DNA of 64,000 nt from Parcubacteria group bacterium (GCA_943354045.1 CALRBF010000001.1:343598-407597), one strand, 5' to 3'. Positions 7,933-63,970 are shown, counted from the stretch's first letter. The notes: generated from the sequence alone by a model not told the origin. Translations and numbers: made by a program.

Positions 7933-8080
7933 TGTCCTCCTCCGTCCACTCCCGTATAAATACGACAGTGACCACCTCCCCCGAGGGAGGACAGGGATTT
8001 TGTCACTGCCTACCGCAGGCAAGCCTCGCTGGCGAGGGTGGCCGCAGGGCGGGTGTGGACGGGCGACTGTAAGGCCGCCC
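7933..8080. repeat. GC-rich hairpin-dense intergenic island, member of a 3-copy family
   Basis: About 60% GC in a roughly 32% GC context. Multiple short inverted repeats. The motif CTCGCTGGCGAGGGTGGCCGCAGGGCGGGTGTGGAC recurs inverted at 63566-63605. GAGGGAGGACAGGGATTTTGTC resembles 48968-48992. Confidence 0.5.
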
Positions 8081-8090
8081 CTACTAAAAG

Positions 8091-9143
8091 CTAAGCCTCT
8101 AAAACAGTATAAACTAATTCCAAAGGATAATGTTTTTCTTGAATTTGGTTTATGACAGTTTGGATTTTTGACAAAAGAGAGCTATTCTCTTTTGGTATGG
8201 TGAACAAAAGTATAAATGGATTATCTTGATTGATATACTCGCAACTAAATCCTTCAGAGCTAGAGGCTATATCTATTGCTAATTCAATATTTTGCATAAT
8301 TTGGTTAGAAGTTTGTCCACCGGCATAAATATTAAACATTGGAACTTCTAAATTTTCTTCTAATTCAGCGCCATTGAGTAGGGGGTTGAAGTTTACAATT
8401 GCTCCAAAAGCATGATGTAGATTTTTGGAATGTAATTCTTGAAAATGAAAGTGATGTGTTCGGACAGAGACTGCAGAATTTTGCTCTTGTAGTCTAGTGG
8501 TCAGAATACTAGCAAAACCAGAAGCATATTGCTCACTGGCTGAATCTAGGACTTTATCTTGATTTTGGAATTTATCTAAAATTTTACTCAAAACTTGCTT
8601 AGAACTTTTGTTAGTTAGAGTGTGAGCTACGGCTCCACATTTTGAGTGAGATGAGACTACAATTTCCTCAATAGTTGGATTATCTTCACATACAGAGATT
8701 ATATTATCTACCATTTGTAATTTTTCCTCGGCTGACATTAGGCATTCACAACCAGGAATTCCAAGTGATAAAGCATGATGAGAAGCGGTTAAATATTGTA
8801 TTCTCTCATCAATACAAGGTAACCAAATCATTTTTGGCCTTTTTACTAGACTATCTTTGAGAATTTTGTCTAAATGTAATTTGTATGTATACTCTGACTT
8901 ATATTTTGTCCCATCAAGATGCAAAAACCCTTTTACCCCTAAAACTTCAGATACAGGGTTGCTATATAACAGATTATGATAAGTTTGAGCATATTTTGCC
9001 CACTCTACACTACGATAAGAATCACAAGAGTTATCAACAGAATTTGCTGACGATATAATTTGGGCTGGCAAACGAAGAAGTGTGCCAAGAGAAGATATTC
9101 TAGACATAAATAAAAACAAATAATAGGACAAAGCCCAATACAA
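8091..9143 (-). CDS. hypothetical protein with beta-carbonic-anhydrase-like zinc-site motifs
   Basis: CIDER (CxDxR) followed about 57 aa later by HSKCGAV (HxxC), the spacing seen in beta-CA. Long N- and C-terminal extensions. The true start may be an internal Met. Confidence 0.3.
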   Translation of the reverse strand: MYWALSYYLFLFMSRISSLGTLLRLPAQIISSANSVDNSCDSYRSVEWAKYAQTYHNLLYSNPVSEVLGVKGFLHLDGTKYKSEYTYKLHLDKILKDSLVKRPKMIWLPCIDERIQYLTASHHALSLGIPGCECLMSAEEKLQMVDNIISVCEDNPTIEEIVVSSHSKCGAVAHTLTNKSSKQVLSKILDKFQNQDKVLDSASEQYASGFASILTTRLQEQNSAVSVRTHHFHFQELHSKNLHHAFGAIVNFNPLLNGAELEENLEVPMFNIYAGGQTSNQIMQNIELAIDIASSSEGFSCEYINQDNPFILLFTIPKENSSLLSKIQTVINQIQEKHYPLELVYTVLEA

Positions 9144-9261: not shown

Positions 9262-9894
9262 ATGAAGTATTTACTTATACATGGATATGGTATTGGTTTA
9301 CAATACTCTTTTTTTAAATCAGCAGAAGGAGAAAATGCTGGTTTTGGAGCTTTTGAGGATTTGATTATAGTGGGTGAGGCGAAAGTTTTTCGTTGGGAAA
9401 TAGCCCGTAAATTAAGTTTTATAGAGTCAATAAACCTGAAACTCAATATAAAACAATATGATATTGAAATGTTAAAGACGGAGAATCAAGAAGTATATGA
9501 TAGCTTACAAAAAGAATTAGAGTCAACAAAACCAGAAATAATAGTTTGTCATTCAGCAGGAAGTTCTTTGTTATTAAACTATCTTACCAATCATATATTA
9601 CCCCCTTCTGTGAAAAAAATTGTATTTATTCAAAGTAATATTTCACAGAATAGGTTGTTCCCAGAATATTTACAAGCAAAGTTACAAAAAAAAGAGATAA
9701 AATTGATAAATATGTACTGTTATTGGGATCAGGCTTTATGGTCTCTCATTTTGATTGGAAGACATATATCTATTGGATTATTCGGGAGTAAAAACACATA
9801 TGTACAAAATATATTCTTCCCCCTATACAAAAGGTTAAATTTACACACATCATCAATTAATGATATCAAAATATTTCCGTTTATTGAGGGGTGA
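9262..9894 (+). CDS. hypothetical protein, possible alpha/beta hydrolase; C-terminus encoded by a dnaE-end-derived repeat copy
   Basis: Nucleophile-elbow-like VCHSAGSS. The last about 20 codons overlap the repeat at 9833-9894. Confidence 0.3.
   Translation: MKYLLIHGYGIGLQYSFFKSAEGENAGFGAFEDLIIVGEAKVFRWEIARKLSFIESINLKLNIKQYDIEMLKTENQEVYDSLQKELESTKPEIIVCHSAGSSLLLNYLTNHILPPSVKKIVFIQSNISQNRLFPEYLQAKLQKKEIKLINMYCYWDQALWSLILIGRHISIGLFGSKNTYVQNIFFPLYKRLNLHTSSINDIKIFPFIEG
9833..9894 (+). repeat. Partial copy (right half) of the about 100-bp dnaE-3'-end-derived repeat
   Basis: TTAAATTTACACACATCATCAATTAATGATATCAAAATATTTCCGTTTATTGAGGGGTGA is near-identical to 11795-11855 and 12674-12734. Confidence 0.85.
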
Positions 9895-10971: not shown

Positions 10972-11748
10972 ATGCATACAGTTAAGTTAAAAAAATTATA
11001 TTATTCCTATGAGAAGACAAAAGTGTTTCAAAATAATACTCTTGTTTTAGAAGTGTCTCAAAATCAGAAAAATAAATTATATGGAATTATTGGACCCTCT
11101 GGAACAGGTAAAACTACATTATTATCTATATTAGGAGGACAATTAAAACCACAAAAAGGATCGGTATATATTGATGATATTAATATATATGAAGTTGGCG
11201 ATAAGGAGCGGCGAAATATCATAGCGGTACAAATGCAAACAGCTACCGCCCTGAGAGGGACTTTACGCGAGAATTTAGTTTTTGGAATTCAAGAAGATGA
11301 GGTCTTGAATAAAGATGAGTATTTGATTGATGTCTTGAGGCGAGTGGGCTTATGGAGCCTTTTTGAGAATAAAGATGGTCTTGATACTCTAATCGGAGAG
11401 GGTGGTGTTAATTTGTCTGGAGGGCAGAGACAAAGATTAAATTTTGCAGGATTATATTTGAGAGCAAAACATTATAAACCAAGTTTAATCCTAATTGATG
11501 AGCCAACTTCTTCCCTAGATGAAATCAGTGAGCGGGCAATTACTCAAATGATAGATGAATTATCCCAAAAATCAGTCACCTTTGTAGTAGCTCATAGACT
11601 CAAAACTCTAGACCAAGCTGTAGGTATATTAGACACTTCTCTAATCCCAACTTACCCAGAACTCAAATTCTATAACAAAGATGAGTTGATGACAGTCTCC
11701 CAATATTACAGGGACCTCCAAGCCGGCAAAGCTCAGTTGGAGGAATAG
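10972..11748 (+). CDS. ABC transporter ATP-binding protein
   Basis: Walker A GPSGTGKTT, signature LSGGQRQR, Walker B LILIDEPTSSLD. Confidence 0.85.
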   Translation: MHTVKLKKLYYSYEKTKVFQNNTLVLEVSQNQKNKLYGIIGPSGTGKTTLLSILGGQLKPQKGSVYIDDINIYEVGDKERRNIIAVQMQTATALRGTLRENLVFGIQEDEVLNKDEYLIDVLRRVGLWSLFENKDGLDTLIGEGGVNLSGGQRQRLNFAGLYLRAKHYKPSLILIDEPTSSLDEISERAITQMIDELSQKSVTFVVAHRLKTLDQAVGILDTSLIPTYPELKFYNKDELMTVSQYYRDLQAGKAQLEE

Positions 11749-11756
11749 GGTTTTTA

Positions 11757-11855
11757 CTCTGGATTATTGAGAATATATCTCCTCTCTATAAAGTTTTTAA
11801 TTTACACATATCATCAATTAATGATATCAAAATATTTCCGTTTATTGAGGGGTGA
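11757..11855 (+). repeat. Full copy of the about 100-bp dnaE-3'-end-derived repeat
   Basis: Begins CTCTGGATTATTGAGAATATAT, which is the dnaE terminal coding sequence. On the minus strand it still reads ...RRYILNNPE-stop. Confidence 0.85.
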
Positions 11856-11879
11856 TATTCCAGTATAAGAAATCAGTTT

Positions 11880-12596
11880 TTAAATTATATTTACATAAAA
11901 ATATTCCCAAAATGCTTCTAATATACTCCATATACCAAAGCCGAAAAACATCAGCATTACTGAGTTTGCAATAAAGACTAAAAACAGGACTAAAAATATT
12001 ATAATAAGGGGTTTATTGTATAATCTATTATGTCCAACAACTGGATAACTGATATTGTTGTCTAAATCGGAGGTCTTTACAAGGCTAGTATCAAGAGAGG
12101 GTTTTTTGTTACGATGATACAAAATAAATATAGGAACTATAAGAAATGACCATATAAGGAATAATATTATATGTACACCTATAAATATAATAGGCAAGAA
12201 ATTCCAATCATTATTTCCATCAGGAGATAATGTCATAATAAAGCTTAATATTGTAACTATAAAGAGGGCTAAAATACTATCTCTATATCGAGACCAAGAT
12301 ATTGTCTTATAAAACGTCAAAAACCAATAAAGAAACCAAACTAAAGGCAATGTTGCTGCGGCCATAAAGAATATATAATACAGAAAACCTACGTCAAAGT
12401 TAGAGGTAGCACTTATAAACACTAGTGATAAGTATAATATCAGTATAAGGGATATCACCACGATATAATTTTTAGTATACCTATGTATTTTATTTTGATT
12501 AGGAGTAGTATTTGGTGCTTTGCTATAAATATCTTTAATTTCTTGCAAATTACTATTAACTGAGGGTTGTTCCTGATTTAAATTTATTTCATCCAT
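11880..12596 (-). CDS. hypothetical polytopic membrane protein (cassette cargo)
   Basis: Several TM helices. The N-terminus (MDEINLNQEQ...) is paralogous to 12752-13684. Confidence 0.4.
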   Translation of the reverse strand: MDEINLNQEQPSVNSNLQEIKDIYSKAPNTTPNQNKIHRYTKNYIVVISLILILYLSLVFISATSNFDVGFLYYIFFMAAATLPLVWFLYWFLTFYKTISWSRYRDSILALFIVTILSFIMTLSPDGNNDWNFLPIIFIGVHIILFLIWSFLIVPIFILYHRNKKPSLDTSLVKTSDLDNNISYPVVGHNRLYNKPLIIIFLVLFLVFIANSVMLMFFGFGIWSILEAFWEYFYVNII

Positions 12597-12636
12597 ATGT
12601 TTATATTAAATATTACTACTTAAAGAATAACATTAT

Positions 12637-12734
12637 TCTTGATTATTGAGAATATATCTCCTCTCTATAAAGTTTTTAATTTACACACATCATCAATTAA
12701 TGATATCAAAATATTTCCGTTTATTGAGGGGTGA
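12637..12734 (+). repeat. Full copy of the about 100-bp dnaE-3'-end-derived repeat
   Basis: Near-identical to 11757-11855. The left end is a decayed dnaE terminus (minus strand reads LNNQE-stop). Confidence 0.85.
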
Positions 12735-12751
12735 AATCTATTTGTAGGAGA

Positions 12752-13684
12752 TTATTTTCTCCATAGAAAATAAAACAAAAGAGCATCTATTATTGTTATT
12801 ATTAAAGCTACCATCAATACTGCTGAAACGGTAAGATCACCAGCTACTATACCTCCAAGAGATAAAAAGGCAAATCCTAAAAATCCTAATACCAAAAATA
12901 CAGAAATTATAATTCTCAATGTTTTATTAGAGTAACTTTGCTCTTTTATATAGGTAGAGGTTTTAGTATTTGCTGAATCTGTTTGATAATATTCTTGTAT
13001 ACTTTGTATTGGGTCTGTTTTTTTAAAATTATCACTATTTACCATTGATTCAGATTGTTTTGGCTCAAGTTGTATTGATTCATTTTTAATAATATTAAGG
13101 GGTTGAGTTGAAAGGGTTTCCTCAGTAGATCGAGTATTAGTGTCTGTAGATGGAGAGTTTGTATCAGATGTATTAGATATGATGTCTTGATATGAATTAT
13201 TTTTTTCAGATTTTGAAACATCACTATTTTGAGCTTGTTTATTATTTAATAATTGCATTTCAGCATATATTTTGTATGCAGACAATAATATAATAATAAC
13301 CCCAATTATTTTGGGTAATATATTCCAATCACCAAGCAACGATAGAGCTATAATTATACCAGTGACTGAAAACATAGGAATAAAGGCAACTATATTAATT
13401 TTATTAGAAAACGTTGCTATTAATAGAGAAAATATCACACTTGCAAAATATAGAAAAATAAATAAATATATAGGAAATAAAAACATTAATAATATACCAC
13501 TAACTCCATTTTGAAAGGTATTGTTCAGGGTAACATCTAATAAAAACAAAGAGTATAAAGAATATAAAACTAGTAATATAAAGTTTATAAGTTTATTAGA
13601 ATTTTTTTGAGTTAAACTTTCAGTAGAATTTTGATTAGATTTATATTTAGATTGAATTTCTTGTAGAGGGGTAGGATTATCCAT
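12752..13684 (-). CDS. hypothetical polytopic membrane protein with S/T/N-rich linker (cassette cargo)
   Basis: TM helices, low-complexity linker, N-terminus MDNPTPLQEIQ similar to 11880-12596. Confidence 0.4.
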   Translation of the reverse strand: MDNPTPLQEIQSKYKSNQNSTESLTQKNSNKLINFILLVLYSLYSLFLLDVTLNNTFQNGVSGILLMFLFPIYLFIFLYFASVIFSLLIATFSNKINIVAFIPMFSVTGIIIALSLLGDWNILPKIIGVIIILLSAYKIYAEMQLLNNKQAQNSDVSKSEKNNSYQDIISNTSDTNSPSTDTNTRSTEETLSTQPLNIIKNESIQLEPKQSESMVNSDNFKKTDPIQSIQEYYQTDSANTKTSTYIKEQSYSNKTLRIIISVFLVLGFLGFAFLSLGGIVAGDLTVSAVLMVALIITIIDALLFYFLWRK

Positions 13685-13729
13685 AATTTTATCTTAATAT
13701 TATATTTACAGTATATTATCATAATAACA

Positions 13730-16700
13730 CTACTCTGGATTATTGAGAATATATTTGATTCTAGATATAAGTTCTTCGGAATATTGTACTGCAAAATTAG
13801 TGGATTTTATTTGTACATTTGGGCTATTATAATTAGCAACTAGATATACCGGACAATTGCCTCTAGGCTCTCGATTTAATATATCTCTTACTTTTTCCAA
13901 GGAATCCTTAGAGGTATGTGGGGGGATAATAATATTAATACCTACAATTTCCTGTCCTTCAGGAGTTGTGGGGATAGTATTTGGTATACTCTCATCAGGC
14001 TCGGGTATACTAGCTCCAATATCCTCAACCGAATTACCATTATCTTTCTTTTCTTTTGTGGTAATCCAAGTATTTATATCAGTATCAGAGAGAGATTTGA
14101 CTTCTGATACAATAAACTGAGAACTTCCATCTTTATCTTGGCGCTTTCCTTTGAGAGCAAAACCTTTACCAGGGACAATAGCATCAGATATAGGTCCATA
14201 AATACTTGGGAATATAATAGCCTCAATACTATCATTATAATCTTCTAGTGTTACAAATGCCATTTTAGAGCCACTTTTAGTCATAATAATTTTATTCTCT
14301 TTGATGATACCAGCTAAAATCATCCCCGTTTTTCTTTTAGATTCTTTGAGCTCTTTTATACTTGGAAATGCTAAATCTTCTATAATTGTTTTATACTCAT
14401 CGATTGGATGAGCAGAAATCCATAAGCCAAGATAATGATTTTCTAATTCTAAAATTTGATTTAATTGTTCTGTTGGAGAAATCGGGCTATCTACTAAATC
14501 TAATACAGGTGCAGTAGGGGCGGTATTTCCAAATAAAGAATTGGTTGGGACTATGGTATTAATATCAGAAAGTTTTTTGATATATAAACTAATAGTATCG
14601 ATATTTGTGATAAGTATATGTCTTTTCTCTAATTCATCTAAAGCTCCCCCTTTGATTAAGGCTTCTAAATTTTTCTTATTCAATTCTTTTGCTGGTATTC
14701 TTTTGAAAAAATCTTCTAAAGAGCTAAATGGCCCATTATCTATTCGCTCTTGCTCAATATATTCTGCTAAATGGGAACTCATATTTTTGATACTTGCAAG
14801 ACCATAGAAAATTGTAGAATCACTGCCAGAAAATTGAGCTTTGCTATTATTTACATGAGGAGCTTGAATCTTGAGACCTAATTGTCGAGATTCTGTAATA
14901 TCAATAGCGATACGCGTCATATCCTTGGCATCACTATTGAGGAGAGCTACCATAAATTGTAGAGGATAATGTGCTTTGAGATAGGCTGTCTGATAGGCGA
15001 TAAAGGCATAACAAGCGGCATGCGATTTATTGAATCCATAATCTCCAAAAGGTTCAATTAATTCCCATAATTTTTCCCCAACTTGTCTCTCTATACCTTG
15101 TTTAACCGTACCTTCAATAATATTCGTTTTCTGCTCATCCATTAACTCTTTAATCTTTTTTCCCACAGCTTTACGCAAAGTATCGGCTTCTGGTAGCGAA
15201 AATCCCGCCACCGCTTGTGAGGCTTGCATCAGCTGCTCTTGGTAAATCATAATTCCATAAGTTGGTTTCAAAATAGGCTCCAGATTAGGGTGTAAATAAG
15301 AAACCTCCTCCTTACCATGTTTACGAGCAATATAGGTAGGAATAAGCTCCATAGGACCGGGTCTATACAGGGAAACCATAGCAATAAGATCATTAAAGTC
15401 TGATGGTTTTAATCCAATAAGAGCTTTTTTCATTCCCTGAGATTCGAATTGGAATACCCCAGTTGTTTGTCCTTTTTGGAATAATTTATAGGTTAACGCA
15501 TCTTTGATAGGAAGATTATTGATATCAATAATAGTTCCTGTTTGAGATTGTATTAACTCAAGAGTAGACTCAATAGTTGAGAGATTAGATAATCCCAAAA
15601 AATCCATTTTAAGAAGTCCTAAATCTTCAATCGCATGCATTTCATATTGAGTAGTAATAGATGTTTTTCCTCCAGATTCAGAAATTTGTAGGGGAGTATA
15701 AGAGGTGAGTTTTTTGGGAGATATCACCACAGCACAAGCATGGGTGGAAGTATGCCTCACCGACCCTTCTAATTCTTGAGCGGCATCAATAAGAGTTGTT
15801 ACTTTTTCTTCTTGCTCATAGCGAGCTTTGAGTTCTCGAGAATTGGCTATAGATTTAGCAATAGTTTTTTGTTCGATAAGCTTTGCAATAGAATCACATA
15901 GCCCATAAGAATACCCGAGAGCCCTCCCTGTATCTCGAATCGCGGCTTTGGCTGCCATTGTCCCAAAAGTACAAATTTGAGCCACATGATCTTGCCCATA
16001 TTTTTGAGCCACATAGTTAAGTACTAATTCTCTCTTATTATCCTGAAAGTCAATATCGATATCGGGCATAGATACACGGGCAGGATTCAAAAATCGCTCA
16101 AACAAAAGCTGATATTCTAGAGGATCAAGATCGGTTATAGCAAGTAAATAAGCAACCAAACTTCCAGCCGCAGAACCTCTACCCGGCCCTACCAATATGC
16201 TATTACTTTTAGCCCAATTAATAAAATCAGATACAATGAGAAAATAGTCAATATATCCAGCAGTTTTGATAACATCAAACTCATATTCGAGGCGTTCTCG
16301 TATAGGTTTTTGATCTTTGCCTGGATAGCGTTTTACTATTCCATCTTCACAAAGATACCGAAGATAATTCTCATTTGATAATTTTTCTCCTGACTCAAGT
16401 GCAGGTACTTCAAAGGCAGGAAGTTGAATTTGATACAGAGGAATTTCTACATTACAAGCATTAGCAATAGTTCTGGTATTATGAATAGCCTCTTCTGGAA
16501 TATTAAGTTCTTGAGCTAAAGTATATATTTCCTCGGCTGATTTGAGAGAATAATCTTCATAGGCAAAGCTAATACGATCAGGATTTTGAATAGTTGTTTT
16601 ATACTTAATGGCAAGCATAATATCGTGAGCTGTTTTTTGCTCAGGAGTGAGATACATACTTTGCGCTGTTAGAACAAGAGGAATTTGAGCAGATACCCCG

Positions 16701-17248: not shown

Positions 17249-17378
17249 ATAAAATAAATATTTCCTTTTGTATATTATAGCATATTTATAATGAGGTATA
17301 ATAATGTATTAATAAGATGAGAAACATCGTAGACAAAGAGAAGAGACATGCTATACTAAAGAGAAGAAATAAAAAAAT

Positions 17379-19301
17379 ATGATCAAAGCTAAAAGAGTAC
17401 AAAAAGGGTTCACCCTACTCGAGATATTATTAGTAATAGCAGCAATAGGGATATTAGCGGCAATAATATTGGTGGCAATAAACCCCAATAGACAATTAGC
17501 ACAAGTAAGGAATGCAGAGAGGAGATCAGAAATAAATACAATATACAAAGCCCTAGAACAATATCTAATAGATACAAGGAGTTATCCCACAGGGATAACA
17601 ACATCAATACAAGATATATGTATAAATGGAAACACAACAAATTGTGTAAATTTAGGAGTATTAGTCCCCGACTATATAGCAGCAATACCAATAGATCCAG
17701 GAGGAGGGGCTTATAGAGTGGTAATAAATACAAGTAATAATAGAGTATCCGTATATGCCAGTAATGCAGAACTAGGACAGGGTATAGGTATCAATGACCG
17801 ACCTTGGACCCCTGCAAACATCAGTACGGCGCTTTGGTTGGATGCAGCGGATGCCAGCACGATCACGCTCAATGGCAGCACTGTTAGCCAGTGGAACGAC
17901 AAAAGCGGGAATGCGAAACACGCTACGCAAGCAACGGCTGCTAATCAGCCTGCATACACGGCCAGTGGTTTGAACGGTAAGCCAGTGCTGACTTGGGACG
18001 GAGGTAACGACGTGCTGAACACTGCATCAGCACTCAATCACCCTGTAAGCATCTACTCTGTTGCTCAACTTAGCGGTGCCACGAATTCAACAAGGGGGAT
18101 TGTTGGGTCAGGAAGTCAATCTTATTCCCTTGGCACTCTTAGCTCATCACCTGCTGCGACCTCCGCATATGCACTTTGGAATCCGTTCCTCAACGGCGGC
18201 GCGTACATAAACAACACGGCAACAACAGACCCTGTTGTTCTTGGTAGCACTACCGTTTCCAACGTCGAAAACACTTGGAATACTTATGTGAACGGCAGCA
18301 ATGCTGGGCAGGCAATTTGGGATACTGGCACGCCCGCGGCGCCTGGCTTTATTAGGATCGGCTACAGCGGCGTCGGCAGTGAATATTGGCTGGGCACTAT
18401 TGCTGAAGTAGTTATCACCTCGACAACCCTTTCCACCACCGACCGCCAAAAACTTGAAGGCTACCTCGCCTGGAAATGGGGCTTAACAAATAATTTACCA
18501 GCCAATCACCCATATAAATGGAATGGGACTGAATTTGGAGGAGTAAATATTACAGATACAGATGCCCAAACTTATATTGCAGCGGTAGAAACTGCAGATG
18601 GGCAGTCTTTAGAGAATAATACAAGATTAGCTATTCAAAACTTTATAGTTGGAGCAAAAACAGATGGTATATGGGATGCTATAAAATCATCTAATATACT
18701 AGCAGGAGCCAGAACTTTGACTGGAGCATTAGTACCCTTGAAGGGTACGGCACCGACAAACTTCAACTTTGTAAGTGGAGATTATAACAGGAAGACGGGA
18801 CTGGTGGGGAATGGGAGCACGAAGTATCTAGATAGCAATCGGAATAACAATGCTGATCCGCAAAACAGCTTTCACGTATCTGCGCAGATTTCATCGGCAC
18901 ATTCATTGTTGACGAATAGCACGTATATTGGTGCTGGAAATAGTGTTCCTGGACTTACTCATTTGGGAGCAGCCCGTCTAAGTGGCCTAGACACCTTGTT
19001 TTTTAGAAATCGCAGCACTACCGACATCCAAAGTGGTTCTGCTGGCACCACAGGTTTTATTGGAATGTCTAGACCAAATTCAACATCCATCAACTATCGT
19101 TTTAACTCTACGACCGCAACTGGAGCACTTACATCAGAAACTCCTTTTAACGGTAATTTGTTGATTTTTGGTCGAGTCGTTGGGCAACCATATATTGCTG
19201 GCCGTATCGCCTTCTACAGCATCGGGGAATCCCTAAACCTCGCCCTGCTGGATGCCAGGGTCACCCAACTTATGACAGATTTAGGTAATGCAATTCCATA
19301 A
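17379..19301 (+). CDS. Type IV pilin-like protein with two LamG/concanavalin-A-like domains
   Basis: Prepilin leader MIKAKRVQKG|FTLLEILLVIAAIGILAAI. The C-terminal region carries LamG-like motifs (LWLDAADASTI..SQWNDKSGN, EGYLAWKWGL). GC-rich segments at about 17800-18480 and 18720-19290. Confidence 0.7.
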   Translation: MIKAKRVQKGFTLLEILLVIAAIGILAAIILVAINPNRQLAQVRNAERRSEINTIYKALEQYLIDTRSYPTGITTSIQDICINGNTTNCVNLGVLVPDYIAAIPIDPGGGAYRVVINTSNNRVSVYASNAELGQGIGINDRPWTPANISTALWLDAADASTITLNGSTVSQWNDKSGNAKHATQATAANQPAYTASGLNGKPVLTWDGGNDVLNTASALNHPVSIYSVAQLSGATNSTRGIVGSGSQSYSLGTLSSSPAATSAYALWNPFLNGGAYINNTATTDPVVLGSTTVSNVENTWNTYVNGSNAGQAIWDTGTPAAPGFIRIGYSGVGSEYWLGTIAEVVITSTTLSTTDRQKLEGYLAWKWGLTNNLPANHPYKWNGTEFGGVNITDTDAQTYIAAVETADGQSLENNTRLAIQNFIVGAKTDGIWDAIKSSNILAGARTLTGALVPLKGTAPTNFNFVSGDYNRKTGLVGNGSTKYLDSNRNNNADPQNSFHVSAQISSAHSLLTNSTYIGAGNSVPGLTHLGAARLSGLDTLFFRNRSTTDIQSGSAGTTGFIGMSRPNSTSINYRFNSTTATGALTSETPFNGNLLIFGRVVGQPYIAGRIAFYSIGESLNLALLDARVTQLMTDLGNAIP

Positions 19302-19391
19302 TATGAAATGTTTAATTTTTGCTACAACAAAGTAATATTATAAGAGGGAAATTTTTAGAACAATGTCAGTGGGGGTATTGCCTCTATTAAA

Positions 19392-19434
19392 TGGAGGGAC
19401 TTAAAGCCTCCGCTACAAACATAAACATAATTCA
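19392..19434 (+). repeat. 43-bp direct repeat, left copy, flanking the RhuM cassette
   Basis: TGGAGGGACTTAAAGCCTCCGCTACAAACATAAACATAATTCA matches 20589-20631 at 42 of 43 positions. Confidence 0.85.
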
Positions 19435-19495
19435 AAATTGACAATTCACCATTATTCCCTCCCATGCTATAATACAATAAATATTTATCAATTAT

Positions 19496-20521
19496 ATGAA
19501 TAAAAAAATCCAAAAATCGGATCAAGAGCTACGCCATACACAACAAAATCAGATTGTGATTTATACAGGAGAAGATGGGCAATCTCGTCTAGAGGTAAAA
19601 TTTCAAGGAGAAACAGTTTGGCTAACACAGGCTCAGTTAGTAGACTTATTTCAATCCAGTAAAGCTAATATAAGCGAGCATATCAAAAATATATTTTTAG
19701 AAGGTGAATTAGATAAAAATTCAGTTGTTCGGAATTTCCGAACAACTGCCACAGATGGAAAAAATTATGAAGTAGAACACTATAATCTTGACCTCATAAT
19801 ATCACTCGGATACAGAGTTAAATCCAAAATAGCAACACAATTCCGTATTTGGGCAACTCAACATCTCAAAGAATATATCACCAAAGGCTTCACAATAGAT
19901 TCAGAAAAATTAAAAAATCTAGGAGGAGGAAATTATTGGAAAGAACTTCTAGAACAAATTAGAGATATAAGAAGTAGTGAAAAAGTACTTTATCGTCAAG
20001 TATTAGACCTATATGCAACAGCAATAGATTATAATCCAAACTCACAAGAATCATTAGAATTCTTTAAAACCATACAAAACAAATTACATTTTGCAGCACA
20101 TGGGCACACAGCCGCTGAGGTCATATACCTAAGAGTAGATTCAGACAAGCCATTTGTAGGACTACAAAACTTCAAAGGTAAACAACCAACCCAAGCAGAA
20201 GCAATGATAGCCAAAAACTTTTTATCCTTAACTGAATTAAAAATACTAAATAATTTAGTATCAGCCTACTTTGATTTTGCCGAGATAAATGCTATAGAAC
20301 AAAAGTTAATGAAAATGCAAGATTATATAATAGAATTAGACAATATTTTGCAATCTGCAGGTAGAAAACAATTATTCAATGTAGGTAAAATTAGTAATCA
20401 GGAAGCAATAGATAAAGCAACTACAGAATATAAAAAATATAAAGCCAAAACACTCAGCGAGGTAGAAAAAGCCTACTTAAAATCTATTAAAACCCTACAA
20501 AAAGATATAAAGAAAAAATAA
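19496..20521 (+). CDS. RhuM-family (virulence protein RhuM-like) DNA-binding protein
   Basis: The N-terminus IVIYTGEDGQSRLEVKFQGETVWLTQAQLVDLF...SEHIKNIF...RNFRTTATDGKNYEVEHYNLDLIISLGYRVKS..QFRIWATQ is a strong RhuM signature. Confidence 0.8.
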   Translation: MNKKIQKSDQELRHTQQNQIVIYTGEDGQSRLEVKFQGETVWLTQAQLVDLFQSSKANISEHIKNIFLEGELDKNSVVRNFRTTATDGKNYEVEHYNLDLIISLGYRVKSKIATQFRIWATQHLKEYITKGFTIDSEKLKNLGGGNYWKELLEQIRDIRSSEKVLYRQVLDLYATAIDYNPNSQESLEFFKTIQNKLHFAAHGHTAAEVIYLRVDSDKPFVGLQNFKGKQPTQAEAMIAKNFLSLTELKILNNLVSAYFDFAEINAIEQKLMKMQDYIIELDNILQSAGRKQLFNVGKISNQEAIDKATTEYKKYKAKTLSEVEKAYLKSIKTLQKDIKKK

Positions 20522-20535
20522 GTATGAAAAATACA

Positions 20536-20588
20536 GGCGACTGAAAGGTCACTACTACGAAAAACTATGTCGGCGGGGTCGCCGACTC
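20536..20588 (+). repeat. Short GC-rich repeat (GGCGACTGAAAGG / CTACGAAAAACT family)
   Basis: CAGGCGACTGAAAGGTCACTACTACGAAAAACTATGTCGGCGGGGTCGCCGACTCTACGAAAAACTG. Related copies occur at 7215-7262 (inverted), 31640-31720 and 63841-63920. Confidence 0.6.
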
Positions 20589-20631
20589 TACGAAAAACTG
20601 GAGGGACTTAAAGCCTTCGCTACAAACATAA
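20589..20631 (+). repeat. 43-bp direct repeat, right copy, flanking the RhuM cassette
   Basis: See 19392-19434. Confidence 0.85.
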
Positions 20632-20658
20632 ACATAATTCATAATTAAAAATCACCCT

Positions 20659-21327
20659 ATGAATATACAAACCTTTACTCAAGAAGGAGACTGGATTCAA
20701 GCTAGCACTGAGAAAATTGCTAATAATTTATATGAGCAAATTCAAGCCAAGGGAGATGCAAATTTAGCTGTGTCAGGGGGCACTACTCCTTTTGTGATTT
20801 ATCAGGAATTGGCGAAACAAGCTCTAGATTTCTCACAAGTTGATTTGATTCAAGTAGATGAGCGCTATGTACCGGAAAATAATCCAGAATCTAATTGGAA
20901 AAATGTATCTAAGAGTTTTGAGGGAGTAGATTTTAGACAAACTATTAGATTTGAATATTTAGACCAAATTCAAGACACATTAGCTCTAGCACAAGCCAAA
21001 CTTCCACCACAACTCGGTATCACAATACTAGGTATGGGTATGGACGGACATTTTGCATCACTTTTTGCAGGAGGGGAATATTGGGATAATATATCCAATA
21101 ATAAAGCTCTGATAACGGATGCTCCTGATAATTATATAACTCAGGAGAGATTAAGTCTTAGTCCTGAATATATACTTAATTCGGAGTGTATAATTGTATT
21201 ATTAAAAGGAGAAGATAAATATAATTATCTGATTAATTCTCTCAATCAAAATCATATACCTAAAGAATTTCCTTTACAATATATTGTAGGCCATCCTAAT
21301 TTAGTCATATATTGCTATTTAGATTGA
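20659..21327 (+). CDS. pgl: 6-phosphogluconolactonase (NagB/Pgl/RpiA sugar-phosphate isomerase fold)
   Basis: Motifs LAVSGGTTP, VDERYVP, GMGMDGHFASLF. Confidence 0.65.
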   Translation: MNIQTFTQEGDWIQASTEKIANNLYEQIQAKGDANLAVSGGTTPFVIYQELAKQALDFSQVDLIQVDERYVPENNPESNWKNVSKSFEGVDFRQTIRFEYLDQIQDTLALAQAKLPPQLGITILGMGMDGHFASLFAGGEYWDNISNNKALITDAPDNYITQERLSLSPEYILNSECIIVLLKGEDKYNYLINSLNQNHIPKEFPLQYIVGHPNLVIYCYLD

Positions 21328-48671: not shown

Positions 48672-49066
48672 GTAAATTTGCTCTTTGCAAATGGCCGACA
48701 TCTCTTTCACAGCGTCCTCGGACTCGGAAAAGAGAGGGGAGAAAGTTCAACTCCCCCCCTTCCTCAAGGTGAATCGGGATCGGGTGAAGCTCGACCCTCC
48801 CCTTCCTCCTCGGAGGAAGGGGACGCTCTCATGGAGGGCTTTCATTGGGATCTCCGCTGCTTTGGCTGCAGGAGGTCTGATACTGGGGGATCGATGGGGG
48901 GCTCCAGTCCCCATTACCATCATCCCCCATCAGGGGAATGTCGGAGGGGTTTCAGCAACACCCTCAAGGGAGACAGGATTACCCCGTGTCTCACAACCCT
49001 CCCCCGAAGTCTACCAAGACTGAAGGAACTCTCATCTTAACTTAGCCCCCGCATTTGCTGGGGGCT
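48672..49066 (+). ncRNA. Candidate structured non-coding RNA (about 395 nt, unknown class)
   Basis: Consensus promoter upstream. An intrinsic terminator (GCCCCCGCA..TGCTGGGGGC plus T-tract at 49045-49075) downstream. About 58% GC. Many hairpins (CCTTCCTCCTCGGAGGAAGG, GAGACAGG..CCGTGTCTC). No plausible ORF; translations are low-complexity G/S/P-rich. Confidence 0.4.
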
Positions 49067-50455: not shown

Positions 50456-51157
50456 ATGACCCACACTGCTCTTTCTCAAGATGATGCCGTTCTTGACTTC
50501 ACCACTGCTGCCTACAAGGATGCCTACAGCCGCATCAACGCCATTGTGATCGAGGGCGAACAGGAAGCTCACGACAACTATCTCGCCCTTGGCACCCTGC
50601 TGCCCGAGCAGGCCGAGGAGTTGGACCGGTTGGCGCGGATGGAGATGAAGCACCTCAAGGGTTTCACCGCTTGTGGCGCCAATCTGGGGGTTGAGGCCGA
50701 TATGCAATTTGCTAAAGAGTTCTTCTTTCCCCTACATAATAATTTCCAAACGGCCTTAGCCGAGGGTAAATTGGTAACCTGTTTGCTGATTCAAGCTATA
50801 CTTATCGAGGCCTTCGCCATCGCTGCCTATCATATTTATATCCCGGTGGCCGATCCGTTTGCCCGGAAAATCACCGAGGGAGTGGTGAAAGATGAATACA
50901 CACATCTCAATTATGGTCAGGAATGGCTCAAGGCTCACCTTGAGGAGTCCCGTGCGGAACTGGAACAAGCCAATCGCGACAATCTTCCCTTAATACGGTT
51001 CATGCTCGATGGCGTGGCTGCCGATGCCGCTGCTTTGGGTATGGACAAGGAGGACCTGATGGCCGACTTCATGACCTCTTATCAGGAGGTGCTCACCGAA
51101 ATTGGTTTCACCTCCCGGGAGATTGCCCGGATGGCCGCTGCTGCTCTGCTCGGCTGA
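50456..51157 (+). CDS. ado: Aldehyde-deformylating oxygenase (cyanobacterial ADO, ferritin-like di-iron)
   Basis: Matches the cyanobacterial ADO family as recalled from memory: [78 protein letters not shown]. About 55% GC, well above the surrounding sequence. Confidence 0.85.
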
Positions 51158-51295
51158 CCCACAACTCAAACCATACCTCTTCTTGCATTAGCTAGAAGGG
51201 GTTTTTTATAAATAAGATGAAGAAATATCGTAGACAAAACAACTATAAATAGTTATAGTTACAATAGAATAATAAAAATAATTGTTTCATACTAT

Positions 51296-57407: not shown

Positions 57408-58373
57408 ATGTTTTACAATGGACTTGTAATTGGTAAATTTTACCCACCACATAAAGGACATAAATTCCTTATTGATACGGCGCAAAAAATGAGTGAAAAT
57501 CTAACCATTATTATTTGTGCTAAAGATAATGAAACTATTCCAGGAACTTTACGAGCGCAATGGCTATCACAAATACATCCTAAAGCTAAAATCATATTGA
57601 TCAATGATAATAAATTGGCTGATGATGATTCAGAAGGTTGGGCAAAATATACTGTAGATATACTAGGATTTGTACCAGATGCTGTTTTTACATCAGAAGA
57701 TTATGGAGATCCATATGCTCATTTTATGGGAAGTATACATGTACTTGTAGATAAAGAGCGTGCCACTATTCCGATATCAGGGACATTGGTGCGTAATAAC
57801 CCTACAAAATATATAAAATTTCTTGAACCAAATGTGAGAGCATATTTTACAAGAAGAATTGTAGTATTAGGGGCTGAATCAACGGGTACGACAACTTTAG
57901 CTAAAGCATTAGCACAGTATTATAATACGGTATGGGTGCCTGAATATGGACGATATTTTAGTGAAGGAAAACGTTTTGTAGGATATGGTGAAGGGGATTG
58001 GACTACTGCAGAATTTGTAGCTATTGCCAAAGCCCAAGCAAAATTTGAAGATTCTCTCGCTGAATCAAGTAAGGGGATAGTGATTTCTGATACTGATGCT
58101 TTTGCTACAGCTATTTGGCATGAAAGATATTTAGGTTTTCGTGCTCCAGAAGTAGAAGCAATCTCCGCTAATAGAAGAGTAGATCTCTATATAATAACAG
58201 GAGATGAAATTCCTTTTGAAGATGATGGACTTCGCGATGGGGAAAATATTCGACATGAATTGCACCAACTTTTTATTCAGCGTGTCATAGAAAGTAAAAA
58301 GCCATATATTATAGTACAAGGTAGTGTAGAAGAACGGCTACAAGTTGCGGTAGAGGCTATATATAAACTTTAG
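57408..58373 (+). CDS. nadR: NadR-type NMN adenylyltransferase / ribosylnicotinamide kinase (no HTH domain)
   Basis: HxGH motif GKFYPPHKGH; P-loop GAESTGTTTLAKALA of the RNK domain. Confidence 0.8.
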   Translation: MFYNGLVIGKFYPPHKGHKFLIDTAQKMSENLTIIICAKDNETIPGTLRAQWLSQIHPKAKIILINDNKLADDDSEGWAKYTVDILGFVPDAVFTSEDYGDPYAHFMGSIHVLVDKERATIPISGTLVRNNPTKYIKFLEPNVRAYFTRRIVVLGAESTGTTTLAKALAQYYNTVWVPEYGRYFSEGKRFVGYGEGDWTTAEFVAIAKAQAKFEDSLAESSKGIVISDTDAFATAIWHERYLGFRAPEVEAISANRRVDLYIITGDEIPFEDDGLRDGENIRHELHQLFIQRVIESKKPYIIVQGSVEERLQVAVEAIYKL

Positions 58374-58382
58374 GAAATATAA

Positions 58383-59106
58383 AAGAGGAGACAAAAACCT
58401 CCTCTTTTATATTTTGGCTCCGGAAGCTGGACGACGTTCGAACCTTTGAGTGGGGGATATAGGTACTTACCTCACCCCTTTCTCACTATAGTTTTGGAGA
58501 AATGAAAAAGCCCCCGCAGTGGCGGGGGTGTGTGCTGAGTAATTGCTACTCAGGGGGTTTTCAAAGTTTCCCCAAGTTTTTGGCCTACTTGATGTAATGC
58601 GACAGCTGGCCACAGTGCAGTTGTACCTAGACCTATCACTAGTTGGGATCTAGATAGCTCTCCTTTCGGGAATTCTGGGCCAAAGGCACCTATACCGACG
58701 GAAAAACCGACCCCCAGTAGTGAGTATGACACTGAGTATGACACCAATACGATCCATGGAAATAGATCGATGGACTTTGCTGGTGCTTCTGGAGCAGTGG
58801 GGGTTGGGCTCTCAGTAGTCATTGGGAATAACGAACATTAGCAAGAATAACATACCACATTTTCCCAATTTTGTCAATATCAAACAACATTATATTCTAA
58901 CTTATACTTTACTTATATATAAACCAAAAAACAGCTAAAATAAGCCGTTTAAAGGGAGCGGGCTCCGCGAGTAGGATTGCAAACCAGTCGTGAATGAGAT
59001 TCACTCCTTGGAACCACTCGGTTCCAATACCTCCACCACGGGAAACTCCCGTTTCCCGACCCCTTCCCCAGGTTCTCATCCTACTCTCTCAAAAGACAAG
59101 AAATAT
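58383..59106 (-). repeat. Tandem unit A (724 bp): terminator + tRNA-3'-end-like element E + small 2-TM ORF + promoter + pseudo-3'-exon fragment
   Basis: Near-identical in organisation and sequence to unit B (59107-59889). The terminator AAAGAGGAGACAAAAA(C/T)CTCC..TTTT is identical to the one following the real tRNA at 59890-59916. Confidence 0.75.
58550..58822 (-). CDS. small hypothetical 2-TM membrane protein (unit A)
   Basis: 90 aa. N-terminus MTTESPTPTAPEAPAKSIDLFPWIVL and C-terminus ALHQVGQKLGETLKTP are identical to the unit B paralog. Own terminator hairpins downstream. Confidence 0.4.
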   Translation of the reverse strand: MTTESPTPTAPEAPAKSIDLFPWIVLVSYSVSYSLLGVGFSVGIGAFGPEFPKGELSRSQLVIGLGTTALWPAVALHQVGQKLGETLKTP

Positions 59107-59889
59107 AAAAGAGGAGACAAAAATCTCCCCTTTTATATTTTGGCTCCGGAAGCTGGACGATGTTCGAACCTTTGAGTGGGGGGTATAAGTACCTACCTCA
59201 CCATCTCCTCACTATAGGTTGGGAGAAATAAAAAGCCCCCGCAGTGGCGGGGGTGTGTGCTGAGTAATTGCTGCTCAGGGGGTTTTCAAAGTTTCCCCAA
59301 GTTTTTGGCCTACTTGATGTAATGCAACAAATGGCCACGCAGCGGTGATACCTGTTATCACTACTGTCTGGGGCAGTGTGAGTAGTTCTTGCGGGTATCT
59401 TGAACCTAAGATACCCTTGGTAAAACCTATTCCCAGCATTGTGTATGATGCCAATACGATCCATGGAAATAGATCGATGGACTTTGCTGGTGCTTCTGGA
59501 GCAGTGGGGGTTGGGCTCTCAGTAGTCATTGGGAATAACGAACATTAGCAAGAATAACATACCACATTTTCCCAATTTTGTCAATACCAAACAACATTAT
59601 ATTCTAACTTATACTTTACTTATATATAAACCAAAAAACAGCTAAAATAAGCTGTTTAAAGGGAGTGGTCTCCGCGAGTAGGATTGCAAACCAGTCGTGA
59701 ATGGGATTTACTCCTTGGAACCACTCGGTTCCAATACCTCCACCACGGGAAACTACCATTCCCATCAATCCCCCCACACCCCGTCTCGGACACCTACGGT
59801 TTCCGACACTCGGAGTAAACTCCTCGCTGCCTTCCTGTCCAGGGGGACTGATACCCCTTCCCCAGGTTCTCATCCTATACTCTCTCAAA
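59107..59889 (-). repeat. Tandem unit B (783 bp), paralog of unit A
   Basis: See unit A. Confidence 0.75.
59275..59529 (-). CDS. small hypothetical 2-TM membrane protein (unit B)
   Basis: 84 aa, paralog of 58550-58822. Confidence 0.4.
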   Translation of the reverse strand: MTTESPTPTAPEAPAKSIDLFPWIVLASYTMLGIGFTKGILGSRYPQELLTLPQTVVITGITAAWPFVALHQVGQKLGETLKTP

Positions 59890-59974
59890 AGATAAGAAAT
59901 ATAAAAGAGGAGACAAAAATCTCCCCTTTTATATTTTGGCTCCGCGAGTAGGATTCGAACCTACGACCAATCGG

Positions 59975-60530
59975 TTACACCTTATCCAAGTATTTCTACA
60001 AGGCGTGGACTATATCATCATCCATCATAGTGATGGAGCGAGGCGCTTCCACTGTATTGCTACAATGTACTCCCTTGCGGGATAGTCTCTGAACCTTCCT
60101 GAGATTTCTCAGGCTTGGCTGCTGATTTCCATAATGTTTCCATCTTAGGGTTCCAGCAATTCACCTCGTGTTTCAACTTCTGTTACCAGAAGAAGCTGCA
60201 ACTAGACCCGCATGAATTTCTTTGTGGCAGTTAGAGCATACCAATACACATTTATCGAGTTCATCTTTCATTTTATCCCAAGATCTTGTAATTCCTTTAT
60301 AGGATATTCCAAAGTCTTTTTGATTGGGATCAGTGTGATGAAATTCTAATGCATCTGTACAGGTATTGTATCCACATAAGGAGCATTTATCTCCCAAGTA
60401 AGATACAGCTTTTTTCTTGAGAAGTTTTCTTCTCTGAGAAACTGCATTTTTAAGATATTCAGCACGATCAGAATATTTTCTTTTGCCAGGCATACTAATA
60501 TAATTAGGTGTACGATGACTCAAGAAGGTA
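59975..60530 (-). mobile_element. Group I intron (about 556 nt) carrying an HNH homing endonuclease ORF
   Basis: Conserved R element GGTTCAGAGACTA (60083-60095, minus) and S element GATATAGTCC (60007-60016, minus) form P7. A candidate IGS GCAGCC is complementary to the exon end GGCUGU with a U-G wobble. Confidence 0.7.
60173..60493 (-). CDS. HNH homing endonuclease (intron-encoded)
   Basis: CSLCGY..EFHHTDPN..CVLVCSNCHKEIH is an HNH/zinc-finger motif. The start is chosen at MPGKRK; the ORF-track start at 60535 is the tRNA anticodon GTG itself. Confidence 0.7.
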   Translation of the reverse strand: MPGKRKYSDRAEYLKNAVSQRRKLLKKKAVSYLGDKCSLCGYNTCTDALEFHHTDPNQKDFGISYKGITRSWDKMKDELDKCVLVCSNCHKEIHAGLVAASSGNRS

Positions 60531-63498: not shown

Positions 63499-63502
63499 AA
63501 AT

Positions 63503-63920
63503 CACCTCCACCCCGTCAGGCAAGCCTGACACCCCTCAAGAGGGGGGTCTAAGCTCAGTCCACACCCGGCACTCCGTGCCACCCTCGCCGGCGAGGTACA
63601 GTATATCTTGTCCTCCCTTCTACCCACGGCAGATAAATGGGGGGGCGGACTTTAGGTCGGAGGTGGACAGTATTTTGTAGCGGAGTGGTTTAGTGTTATT
63701 TTGTCCCCCTTCGCCTGCCTGCGGTAGGCAGGGAGGGGGGAAGCCTGAAAGGCGGGGGGGGTGGATAGATCTTTAATTATTTAATATGTTAAAAACAAAT
63801 CCACCCTCCCCCTACGGGGACTCCCCCGCCTAAATAAATATAGGAGGGACGAAAGCCTCCAAAGGAGGATAAATATCAAAGGCGACTGAGAGGCTGCCCC
63901 TACGACTCCCCCTCCCATTC
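63503..63920. repeat. GC-rich hairpin-dense island, composite of family motifs
   Basis: 63566-63605 is the inverted copy of 7987-8021. TGCCTGCGGTAGGCA is the inverse of TGCCTACCGCAGGCA at 7975-7989. CGGGGGGGGTGGATAG resembles 27246-27262. The 3' part (63841-63920) belongs to the GGAGGGAC...GGCGACTGAGAGG...CCCTACGA short-repeat family. Confidence 0.5.
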
Positions 63921-63970
63921 TAAATATCATGTTTTTATGATATAATAGTACTAATAGGTCATAAAATTAT

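Follow-up and report, generated by a model that had tools for sequence, protein, structure and literature searches.

In a 64-kb stretch of DNA from a Parcubacteria group bacterium (the window hereafter, i.e. the whole stretch analyzed), a RhuM-family gene lies between two nearly identical 43-bp direct repeats, in the spacer that separates dnaE from pgl, the 6-phosphogluconolactonase gene. Comparison with related loci establishes RhuM as an accessory gene that is exchanged horizontally at this site and is mobile in the evolutionary sense. On balance, and with modest confidence, these alignments favor a reading in which the dnaE|pgl spacer is a recombination hotspot and the 43-mers are a recombination scar, not dedicated attachment (att) sites. 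In the following, coordinates are window positions unless another locus is named, and L-numbers (L001, L014, L101, etc.) are the labels of the relatives' loci or assemblies that were compared.

The left 43-mer (TGGAGGGACTTAAAGCCTCCGCTACAAACATAAACATAATTCA) occupies positions 19392-19434 on the plus strand and is formed by a hairpin, GGAGG-N9-CCTCC (19393-19411), followed by the AT-rich tail GCTACAAACATAAACATAATTCA. The right copy, on the same strand, is at 20599-20641, 10 nt further to the right than the 20589-20631 given in the preliminary description of this DNA, which had located the left copy correctly. The single mismatch reported between them is C19410 versus T20617 (42/43 identical), and they do bracket the RhuM open reading frame (ORF) at 19496-20521. 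The 43-mer has these two matches and no other in the window, with 0 expected from 100 dinucleotide shuffles. A weaker likeness lengthens the pair to 57 nt (19389-19445 versus 20596-20652, 91%), the longest uninterrupted homology within the 43-57 bp being 24 bp. The downstream lengthening is not significant taken alone, nor is the upstream one, as the score of the local alignment of the flanks is reached by 70 of 500 shuffles. Since four independent ENA assemblies (L001-L004) hold both copies, an assembly artefact is excluded. The hairpin noted earlier is present, perfect in the left copy and with one G.U pair in the right one, and its stability is ordinary (-9 and -5.8 kcal/mol, respectively; z about -1.4 versus shuffled sequence). 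The two CTACGAAAAACT units described before the right copy are real as well (20555-20566 and 20588-20599), the second overlapping the first base of the 43-mer. The exact 24-mer of the repeat (CGCTACAAACATAAACATAATTCA) has no match in the GTDB species representatives, the JGI metagenome contigs or IMG/VR.

The content of the spacer between dnaE and pgl, two divergent core genes, is polymorphic among relatives. A pilin gene together with RhuM is found in the window, L001-L010 and L014/L015/L186; RhuM alone in L016 and L018-L021; and a longer spacer devoid of RhuM in L102, L181 and L184/L185. The spacer is empty in L023, L103 and L104, where it measures 58-75 nt and pgl starts 7-9 nt past a TGnTATAAT box. 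It is empty too in L101, a close relative (dnaE 96% identical in DNA) whose 72-nt spacer belongs to another sequence type. In L022, a reverse-transcriptase-like ORF ending in ...GITFLGYTL... (1500-1790 of that locus) stands directly upstream of pgl and would add one more alternative to the cargos of the hotspot. Such an arrangement, in which conserved flanking genes enclose alternative contents and are also found with nothing between them, is reminiscent of the minimal mobile elements (MMEs) of Neisseria, alternative whole-gene inserts between conserved genes that are exchanged by transformation and flanking homologous recombination.

Identity to the relatives switches at both edges of the variable block. 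As far as the dnaE start codon at 17248, the coding sequence is shared with the empty relative L101 at 98-100% identity; immediately beyond, positions 17250-17299 are 96% identical to the L016/L181/L184 clade and 62% to L101. This left end of the block comprises a dnaE-proximal promoter region, P (17249-17305, plus strand, TGaggTATAAT). On the other side, pgl (20659-21327, plus strand) is 85-92% identical to L016/L181/L184 and 55-61% to L101 over 20659-21030, and 94-96% identical to L014/L101, the native type, over 21031-21327; L014 returns to the native type earlier, at ~20760. As segment identities switch within the conserved dnaE and pgl, the variable block has been exchanged by recombination with crossovers in these two genes. 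Judged from these switches, the whole block from 17249 to ~21030 is imported, the 5' part of pgl included, and its breakpoints are the dnaE start codon and the interior of pgl. Mosaic breakpoints in flanking genes, here at the dnaE start codon and at ~20760/~21030 in pgl, are a further property of MME-type hotspots. The indel that separates the window from L101 spans ~3.8 kb (pilin, RhuM and the 5' part of pgl) and does not run from repeat to repeat. Considered as a whole, pgl is a three-part mosaic between clades (breakpoints ~20760 and ~21030), with an overall identity of ~80% to every relative, the closest included.

The right 43-mer is part of a conserved pgl-proximal sequence, CTAC(G/A)AAAAAC-TGGAG.GA...ATAATTCAYAATTAA...CCCTATG, that occurs in all long-spacer lineages with or without RhuM. 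It aligns with the region upstream of pgl in L014, L016, L019, L184, L102 and L022, and exists also in L184/L185, which have no RhuM. On the basis of these alignments, the right copy is the ancestral pgl-proximal sequence. The left 43-mer is found only where the pilin unit is upstream, that is, in the window lineage and in L014/L015/L186, and is missing from the RhuM-only relatives L016, L019 and L021. In L014/L186, the left copy is partly deleted to TGGAGGGATAAACATAATTCA, 14-22 nt being lost, hairpin included, with RhuM intact, and the right copy is without CT and one ACATAA unit; the copies are therefore not conserved as a pair. The preliminary description had suggested looking for empty relatives holding one 43-mer. 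L101, L023 and L104 lack the 43-mer or differ over ~3.8 kb, and L184 has one 43-mer homolog but a different left context, so that relatives do not show what an att-flanked element would produce, namely a single repeat at the empty site and the same pair of repeats wherever the gene is carried.

The RhuM gene (plus strand, 341 amino acids) matches PF13310 (Virulence_RhuM) over its full length, at profile positions 1-249 of 252 (E 7e-98, 327 bits for a cutoff of 33.7), and PADLOC's hidden Markov model PDLC04843 for the candidate defense family PDC-S05 over 325/330 positions (E 2e-156). The identical protein is encoded on 11 contigs. No PDB relative was found by sequence, and the AlphaFold2 model (pLDDT 45.5) is too poor for use. 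A role as toxin domain in restriction-modification (R-M) neighborhoods was put forward for RhuM (PMC3710099), and one PDC-S05 gene shielded E. coli from T7, T5 and T4 (bioRxiv 10.1101/2024.09.26.614923). From its profile matches, the gene is likely a candidate anti-phage or defense gene. Its DNA is 95.6-95.8% identical to that of L016/L019, whereas in the same comparison dnaE reaches 74%, the permease gene 68% and uvrB 80%. Third-codon-position identity is 92% for RhuM versus 60% for uvrB, synonymous codon differences amount to 7% versus 41%, and the high-identity tract extends from ~19500 to ~20520. A copy 92% identical is also found in an unrelated locus, L190, between a 1133-aa hydrolase with a 151-aa ORF on one side and YhcG with a PIN protein on the other; homology to this L190 unit begins at window position 19436 and ends at the stop codon. 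The earlier view of RhuM as a cargo gene is thus borne out by the variable spacer states, by its ~96% identity where dnaE has ~74%, by the 92% identical copy elsewhere and by the PDC-S05 match. A phage was considered as vector and rejected, the closest IMG/VR RhuM being 66% identical and the phage matches in GenBank at most 78% over short stretches.

RhuM is preceded by a promoter module and leader (19435-19495, plus strand), with a -35 TTCACC at 19445-19450 and a TGcTATAAT ending at 19473. This promoter-like site, TTCACC-17-TGcTATAAT, scores 10/12 in the scan with its extended -10, and the leader from TATAAT on is common to L016/L019. As the scan returns no plus-strand terminator after RhuM, where the trailer hairpins look like minus-strand terminators, transcription likely reads through into pgl. 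The L190 copy of RhuM itself has a GC-rich element (ctgtcctcccttgggggaggtggcac...gacggaggaggactgtat; L190 4880-4945 and 6100-6500) in direct orientation on both sides. Three assemblies break at this element, and one scaffold has an N gap there with duplicated sequence on either side.

The order of events and the exact mode of joining are inferred from these comparisons. In the proposed scenario, the alternative contents of the spacer (nothing, RhuM, a pilin paralog with RhuM, or the reverse-transcriptase-like ORF) would be exchanged between strains, and even between genus-level lineages, by homologous recombination in the conserved flanks, with no gene for mobility in the inserts themselves. 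As a single-gene, defense-type cargo that includes its promoter and leader (19436-20521), RhuM would travel with the pgl-proximal sequence, right 43-mer included. The left 43-mer would then be a second copy of the pgl-proximal boundary, left when two alternative alleles were stacked: one with the pilin gene, which had a 43-mer at its end beforehand, and, downstream of it, one with RhuM. That the left copy sits at a junction follows from its surroundings, with pilin-derived sequence to its left and the L190-shared RhuM unit (from 19436) to its right. Two routes may be envisaged. The first is a single crossover of a circularized fragment within the 43-mer, i.e. over short homology; in E. coli, single crossover of a circular molecule duplicated the homologous locus in 56 of the 60 clones tested (PMC3240628). 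In the second, homologous recombination would act on one side only, in pgl, and the other side would be closed by a microhomology join directly to the right of the recipient's 43-mer. After ATTCA the copies continue as AAATTGACAAT and TAATTAAAAAT, identical at 8 of 11 positions, and this point is a plausible microhomology junction. Such a scenario accounts for how far the repeat extends, where the RhuM unit is bounded, why pgl is a mosaic and why mobility genes are absent. Once in place, the direct repeats could support rare RecA-type deletion of RhuM. The corresponding junctions can be searched for: excision as ...CTCTATTAAA-43mer-TAATTAAAAATCACCC or ...GCCTCTATTAAA+43mer+TAATTAAAAATCACCCTATG, and a circle as ...CTACGAAAAAC-43mer-AAATTGACAATTCACC or ...CTCTACGAAAAAC+43mer+AAATTGACAATTCACC.

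Several observations weigh against this scenario. The recipient that it postulates, a pilin gene joined to pgl via a single 43-mer, was not recovered, whether through homologs of pilin, Pgl and RhuM, through the gene contexts consulted or in two scans of the collection with a Pgl alignment. With 42/43 positions identical and lineage-specific features in common, the two copies are much alike in a region that is very variable between lineages, which requires donor and recipient to have been very close, or gene conversion between the copies. Furthermore, L014 has the same left junction as the window and another breakpoint in pgl, which calls for at least one further recombination event. Finally, natural competence of these organisms is assumed, pilin and T2SSE genes being what is seen of it.

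The 43-mer is built from recurrent pieces, even though the full-length sequence occurs only twice in the window. Its AT-rich tail and the promoter that follows (19426-19480) are ~80% identical to two L190 promoter regions and similar to the pgl promoter of L024, and a hairpin like its own (GGAGGGACGAAAGCCTCC) is found in another intergenic block, at 63843-63860. This recurrence would suit a functional duplication, in which a hairpin and promoter-upstream module is needed before both RhuM and pgl, the copies being kept alike by selection or gene conversion and their position reflecting one module per intergenic spacer. In this direction, the tail has a -10-like CATAAT 17-23 nt upstream of the pgl ATG, and, within a genome, indels specific to the lineage are found in both the left and the right copy. 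Such a regulatory role is nevertheless unlikely: L014/L186 keep an intact RhuM behind a left copy shortened by 14-22 nt and deprived of its hairpin, RhuM is served by other upstream sequences without the 43-mer in L016/L019 and L190, the hairpin is no more stable than shuffled controls, and the 42/43 identity far exceeds the ~80% observed between other copies of the module.

The preliminary description had interpreted the repeats as the ends of a minimal excisable cassette. Stated in its strongest form, this would make the 43-mers attL/attR-like sites with a hairpin, on which a recombinase encoded elsewhere acts in trans, inserting and excising RhuM and similar units at the dnaE 3' end, like cis-mobilizable elements (CIMEs) or integron cassettes. 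Long, near-perfect direct repeats do bracket exactly one gene, as at both ends of an att-flanked element, and the homology to the L190 RhuM unit starts 1-2 nt past the left copy. Moreover, the architecture recurs. On the minus strand, at 11747-13754, three copies of the dnaE 3' end (22-32 nt; 11757-11778, 12636-12657 and 13733-13754) bracket two single-gene units encoding membrane proteins of 238 (11880-12596) and 310 amino acids (12752-13684). Relatives have nothing inserted here, 4 nt separating the ABC gene from dnaE. Each of the two units also includes 62 nt copied from the 3' end of ORF 9262-9894. In L023, an independent lineage, a single 209-aa ORF (1686-2315) lies between the copies of a 52-nt repeat (51/52; 1562-1613 and 2410-2461 of that locus) that corresponds to the dnaE 3' end. 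The succession of units at the dnaE end also recalls accretion in tandem at an att site. Against a shared recombinase site, what is duplicated is always target sequence, and it differs from site to site both in sequence and in length (22, 32, 43-57 and 52 nt), which leaves no common core.

Further evidence goes in the same direction. The unit holds RhuM only and has no integrase nearby: no Pfam match to an integrase, recombinase or transposase was obtained among window ORFs of at least 250 amino acids, nor among the eight annotated ORFs between 13730 and 26149. The RhuM-only relatives L016, L019 and L021 do without the left copy, which has decayed in L014/L186, and the right copy occurs without RhuM in L184/L185; the indel relative to L101 is not bounded by the repeats; and neither GTTRRRY/attC symmetry nor terminal inverted repeats are present. 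The minimal cassette as first formulated is not supported by these observations, and its version with a recombinase in trans appears decidedly improbable. Known classes of elements were examined likewise. An integron cassette was rejected, as reading of 19380-19450 and 20520-20660 disclosed no GTTRRRY core or attC symmetry, RhuM has its own promoter-like site and no integrase was found. An insertion sequence, transposon or miniature inverted-repeat transposable element was set aside on account of unit ends without inverted repeats, duplications of 43-57 nt here and 22-52 nt elsewhere, and the lack of a transposase. A dif/Xer-like site was rejected on reading the sequence, and a tRNA-type att site is ruled out by the absence of a tRNA nearby; Rfam has no family in the repeat region.

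A broader and speculative reading, to which we give equally little credence, is that Patescibacteria may have a systematic insertion of cassettes without an element-encoded recombinase, which would place single-gene units beside core genes with 20-60-bp target duplications. RhuM, the 238-aa and 310-aa units and the 209-aa ORF of L023 would all be such units. Insertion would be the work either of a recombinase that acts in trans and recognizes boundary modules with a hairpin, or of single crossovers over very short homology, driven by transformation. Recombination would use the dispersed GC-rich hairpin mosaics as its substrate. If true, this would be a new way to build arrays of defense and accessory genes in minimal genomes.

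The weakest alternative, a very improbable one, is an intragenomic event (replication slippage, template switching or unequal sister-chromatid exchange) that duplicated the pgl-proximal segment with RhuM already present: the near identity of the two copies and the abundance of short or tandem duplications in the window (the ACATAA unit, the 12-bp CTACGAAAAACT, several tandem paralog pairs) would fit, but a simple tandem duplication would copy the intervening gene too, and the different origins of the two sides of the left copy (pilin flank of the PilB locus; L190-shared RhuM promoter) fit an allele junction better.

The reading as a recombination hotspot makes this locus another example of an already known type, in an understudied phylum. 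It resembles the Neisseria MMEs by its conserved flanks (dnaE, pgl/uvrB), alternative contents including empty ones, absence of mobility genes, breakpoints inside flanking genes and a cargo allele common to diverged backgrounds. It differs in that the hosts are uncultured Patescibacteria whose competence is assumed, that the inserts are also bracketed by duplicated boundary sequence, and that exchange spans lineages with only ~74% dnaE DNA identity. With Campbell-type single crossover, or homology-facilitated illegitimate recombination, it shares an insert between direct repeats of a homologous segment and no element-encoded recombinase; here, however, the homology is only 43-57 bp (24 bp uninterrupted) and the event is deduced from comparative sequence. 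Like the RhuM-bearing defense islands (R-M-associated RhuM; PDC-S05), it has a RhuM-family gene as variable cargo, but this gene, whose defense role is putative, stands alone between housekeeping genes and lacks an R-M, PrrC or DOC partner. As in CIMEs and integron cassettes, direct repeats surround a small integrase-less unit and tandem units are present at the dnaE 3' end, whereas a shared core, attC symmetry and a window integrase are lacking and the repeats are missing from other RhuM carriers.

These comparisons give base-level breakpoints for a defense-type gene exchanged between genus-level lineages of Patescibacteria at one hotspot, with no mobile-element machinery, and indicate that insertion at the hotspot leaves long duplications of boundary sequence. 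They bear on how ultra-small episymbiotic bacteria, which have few classical mobile elements, gain accessory and anti-phage genes. They also call for caution, as long direct repeats around a single gene need not mark an autonomous cassette.

The window has a G+C content of ~33%, and its closest relatives in the genome collection are metagenome-assembled genomes labeled Parcubacteria, Paceibacterota or Saccharibacteria, i.e. Patescibacteria. The gene order at the locus is dnaE (minus strand), a 640-aa prepilin-type gene, RhuM, pgl, a permease gene, uvrB (minus strand), a response regulator gene, DUF3048 and holA. The prepilin-type gene (17379-19301, plus strand) has a Pfam N_methyl match and an NCBIfam GspG-like N-terminus. 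Its homologs, ~60% identical, adjoin a T2SSE ATPase gene and pgk in L188/L189 (the PilB locus), and identity to these loci reaches 90-93% in the leader of the pilin unit and in ~75 nt of its 3' flank; on this evidence, the window gene is a hypervariable paralog copied from the PilB|pilin-pgk locus. These paralogs of the PilB(T2SSE)|pilin-pgk locus (L188 6001-7860 and L189 6001-7980) have leader and 3' flank in common with 17379-19301. Among close relatives, the gene is hypervariable (54-63% amino-acid identity, 392-659 amino acids, GC-rich middle), and its exact 640-aa product is not on record. A diversity-generating retroelement was rejected as the cause, no template-like repeat of 17800-18600 being present within the window. 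In the 3' flank of the pilin unit (19302-19391, plus strand), homology to the PilB locus stops at ~19375 (blastn 19209-19375 versus L188/L189), leaving 19376-19391 as a 16-nt junction before the left 43-mer.

Between RhuM and the right copy lies hairpin H1 (GGCGACTGAAAGGTCAC; 20536-20553, plus strand), which is terminator-like on the minus strand, and belongs to a dispersed GC-rich hairpin family. H1 is present too in L184, which has no RhuM, ahead of pgl, and in L188/L189 between the pilin gene and pgk. In the window, it is followed by a 33-bp lineage-specific insert (20567-20599, plus strand) made of a 21-nt GC hairpin, ATGTCGGCGGGGTCGCCGACT (fold z -3), and the duplicated CTACGAAAAACT; at this site, L014, L186, L016, L019 and L184 have a single CTAC(G/A)AAAAAC joined straight to TGGAG. 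All Logan assemblies of this population break inside this insert, at the 21-nt GC hairpin. These breaks were considered as a sign of circles and rejected, no contig having a circle junction. Downstream of the right copy, the conserved pgl leader TAATTAAAAATCACCCT (20642-20658, plus strand) is kept across lineages as ATAATTCAYAATTAA...CCCTATG.

H1 is also present at 8062-8079 and 63881-63898. GC-rich (>62%), hairpin-rich intergenic blocks are found in the window at 7963-8091, 48751-49007 and 63501-63922, and also at 20536-20608. Their modules include H1 (GGCGACTGWAAGGYCGCC+CCTAC), H2-like GGAGGGAC.AAAGCCTCC and others, copies of H1 and of the 43-mer-like hairpin being within 7963-8091 and 63501-63922. 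Related hairpin mosaics are found in the spacers of relatives, at rearrangement junctions. From their sequence, these blocks look like a mosaic repeat family of Patescibacteria comparable to repetitive extragenic palindromic (REP) sequences and bacterial interspersed mosaic elements (BIMEs), in that GC-rich hairpin modules are scattered intergenically, combined in varying orders and co-located with rearrangement junctions. H1 is one such module, and the hairpin half of the 43-mer has one similar copy, at 63843-63860. They differ in being unrelated in sequence to enterobacterial REPs, with no REP-associated tyrosine transposase (RAYT) seen, and the family is uncharacterized.

Two further regions of the window deserve mention. 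At 58356-60224, three tandem-like units spaced by 707-796 nt each consist of a hairpin followed by TTTTGGCTCCG(G/C)..., like a minus-strand tRNA 3' end; they adjoin a match to the group I intron RF00028 (59986-60224, minus strand), and ARAGORN predicts no tRNA in the window. The gene at 50456-51157, which lies in a GC-rich island (50566-51173) of this low-GC window, encodes a long-chain aldehyde decarbonylase of cyanobacterial type (PF11266, E 2e-114) and is a candidate for horizontal acquisition.

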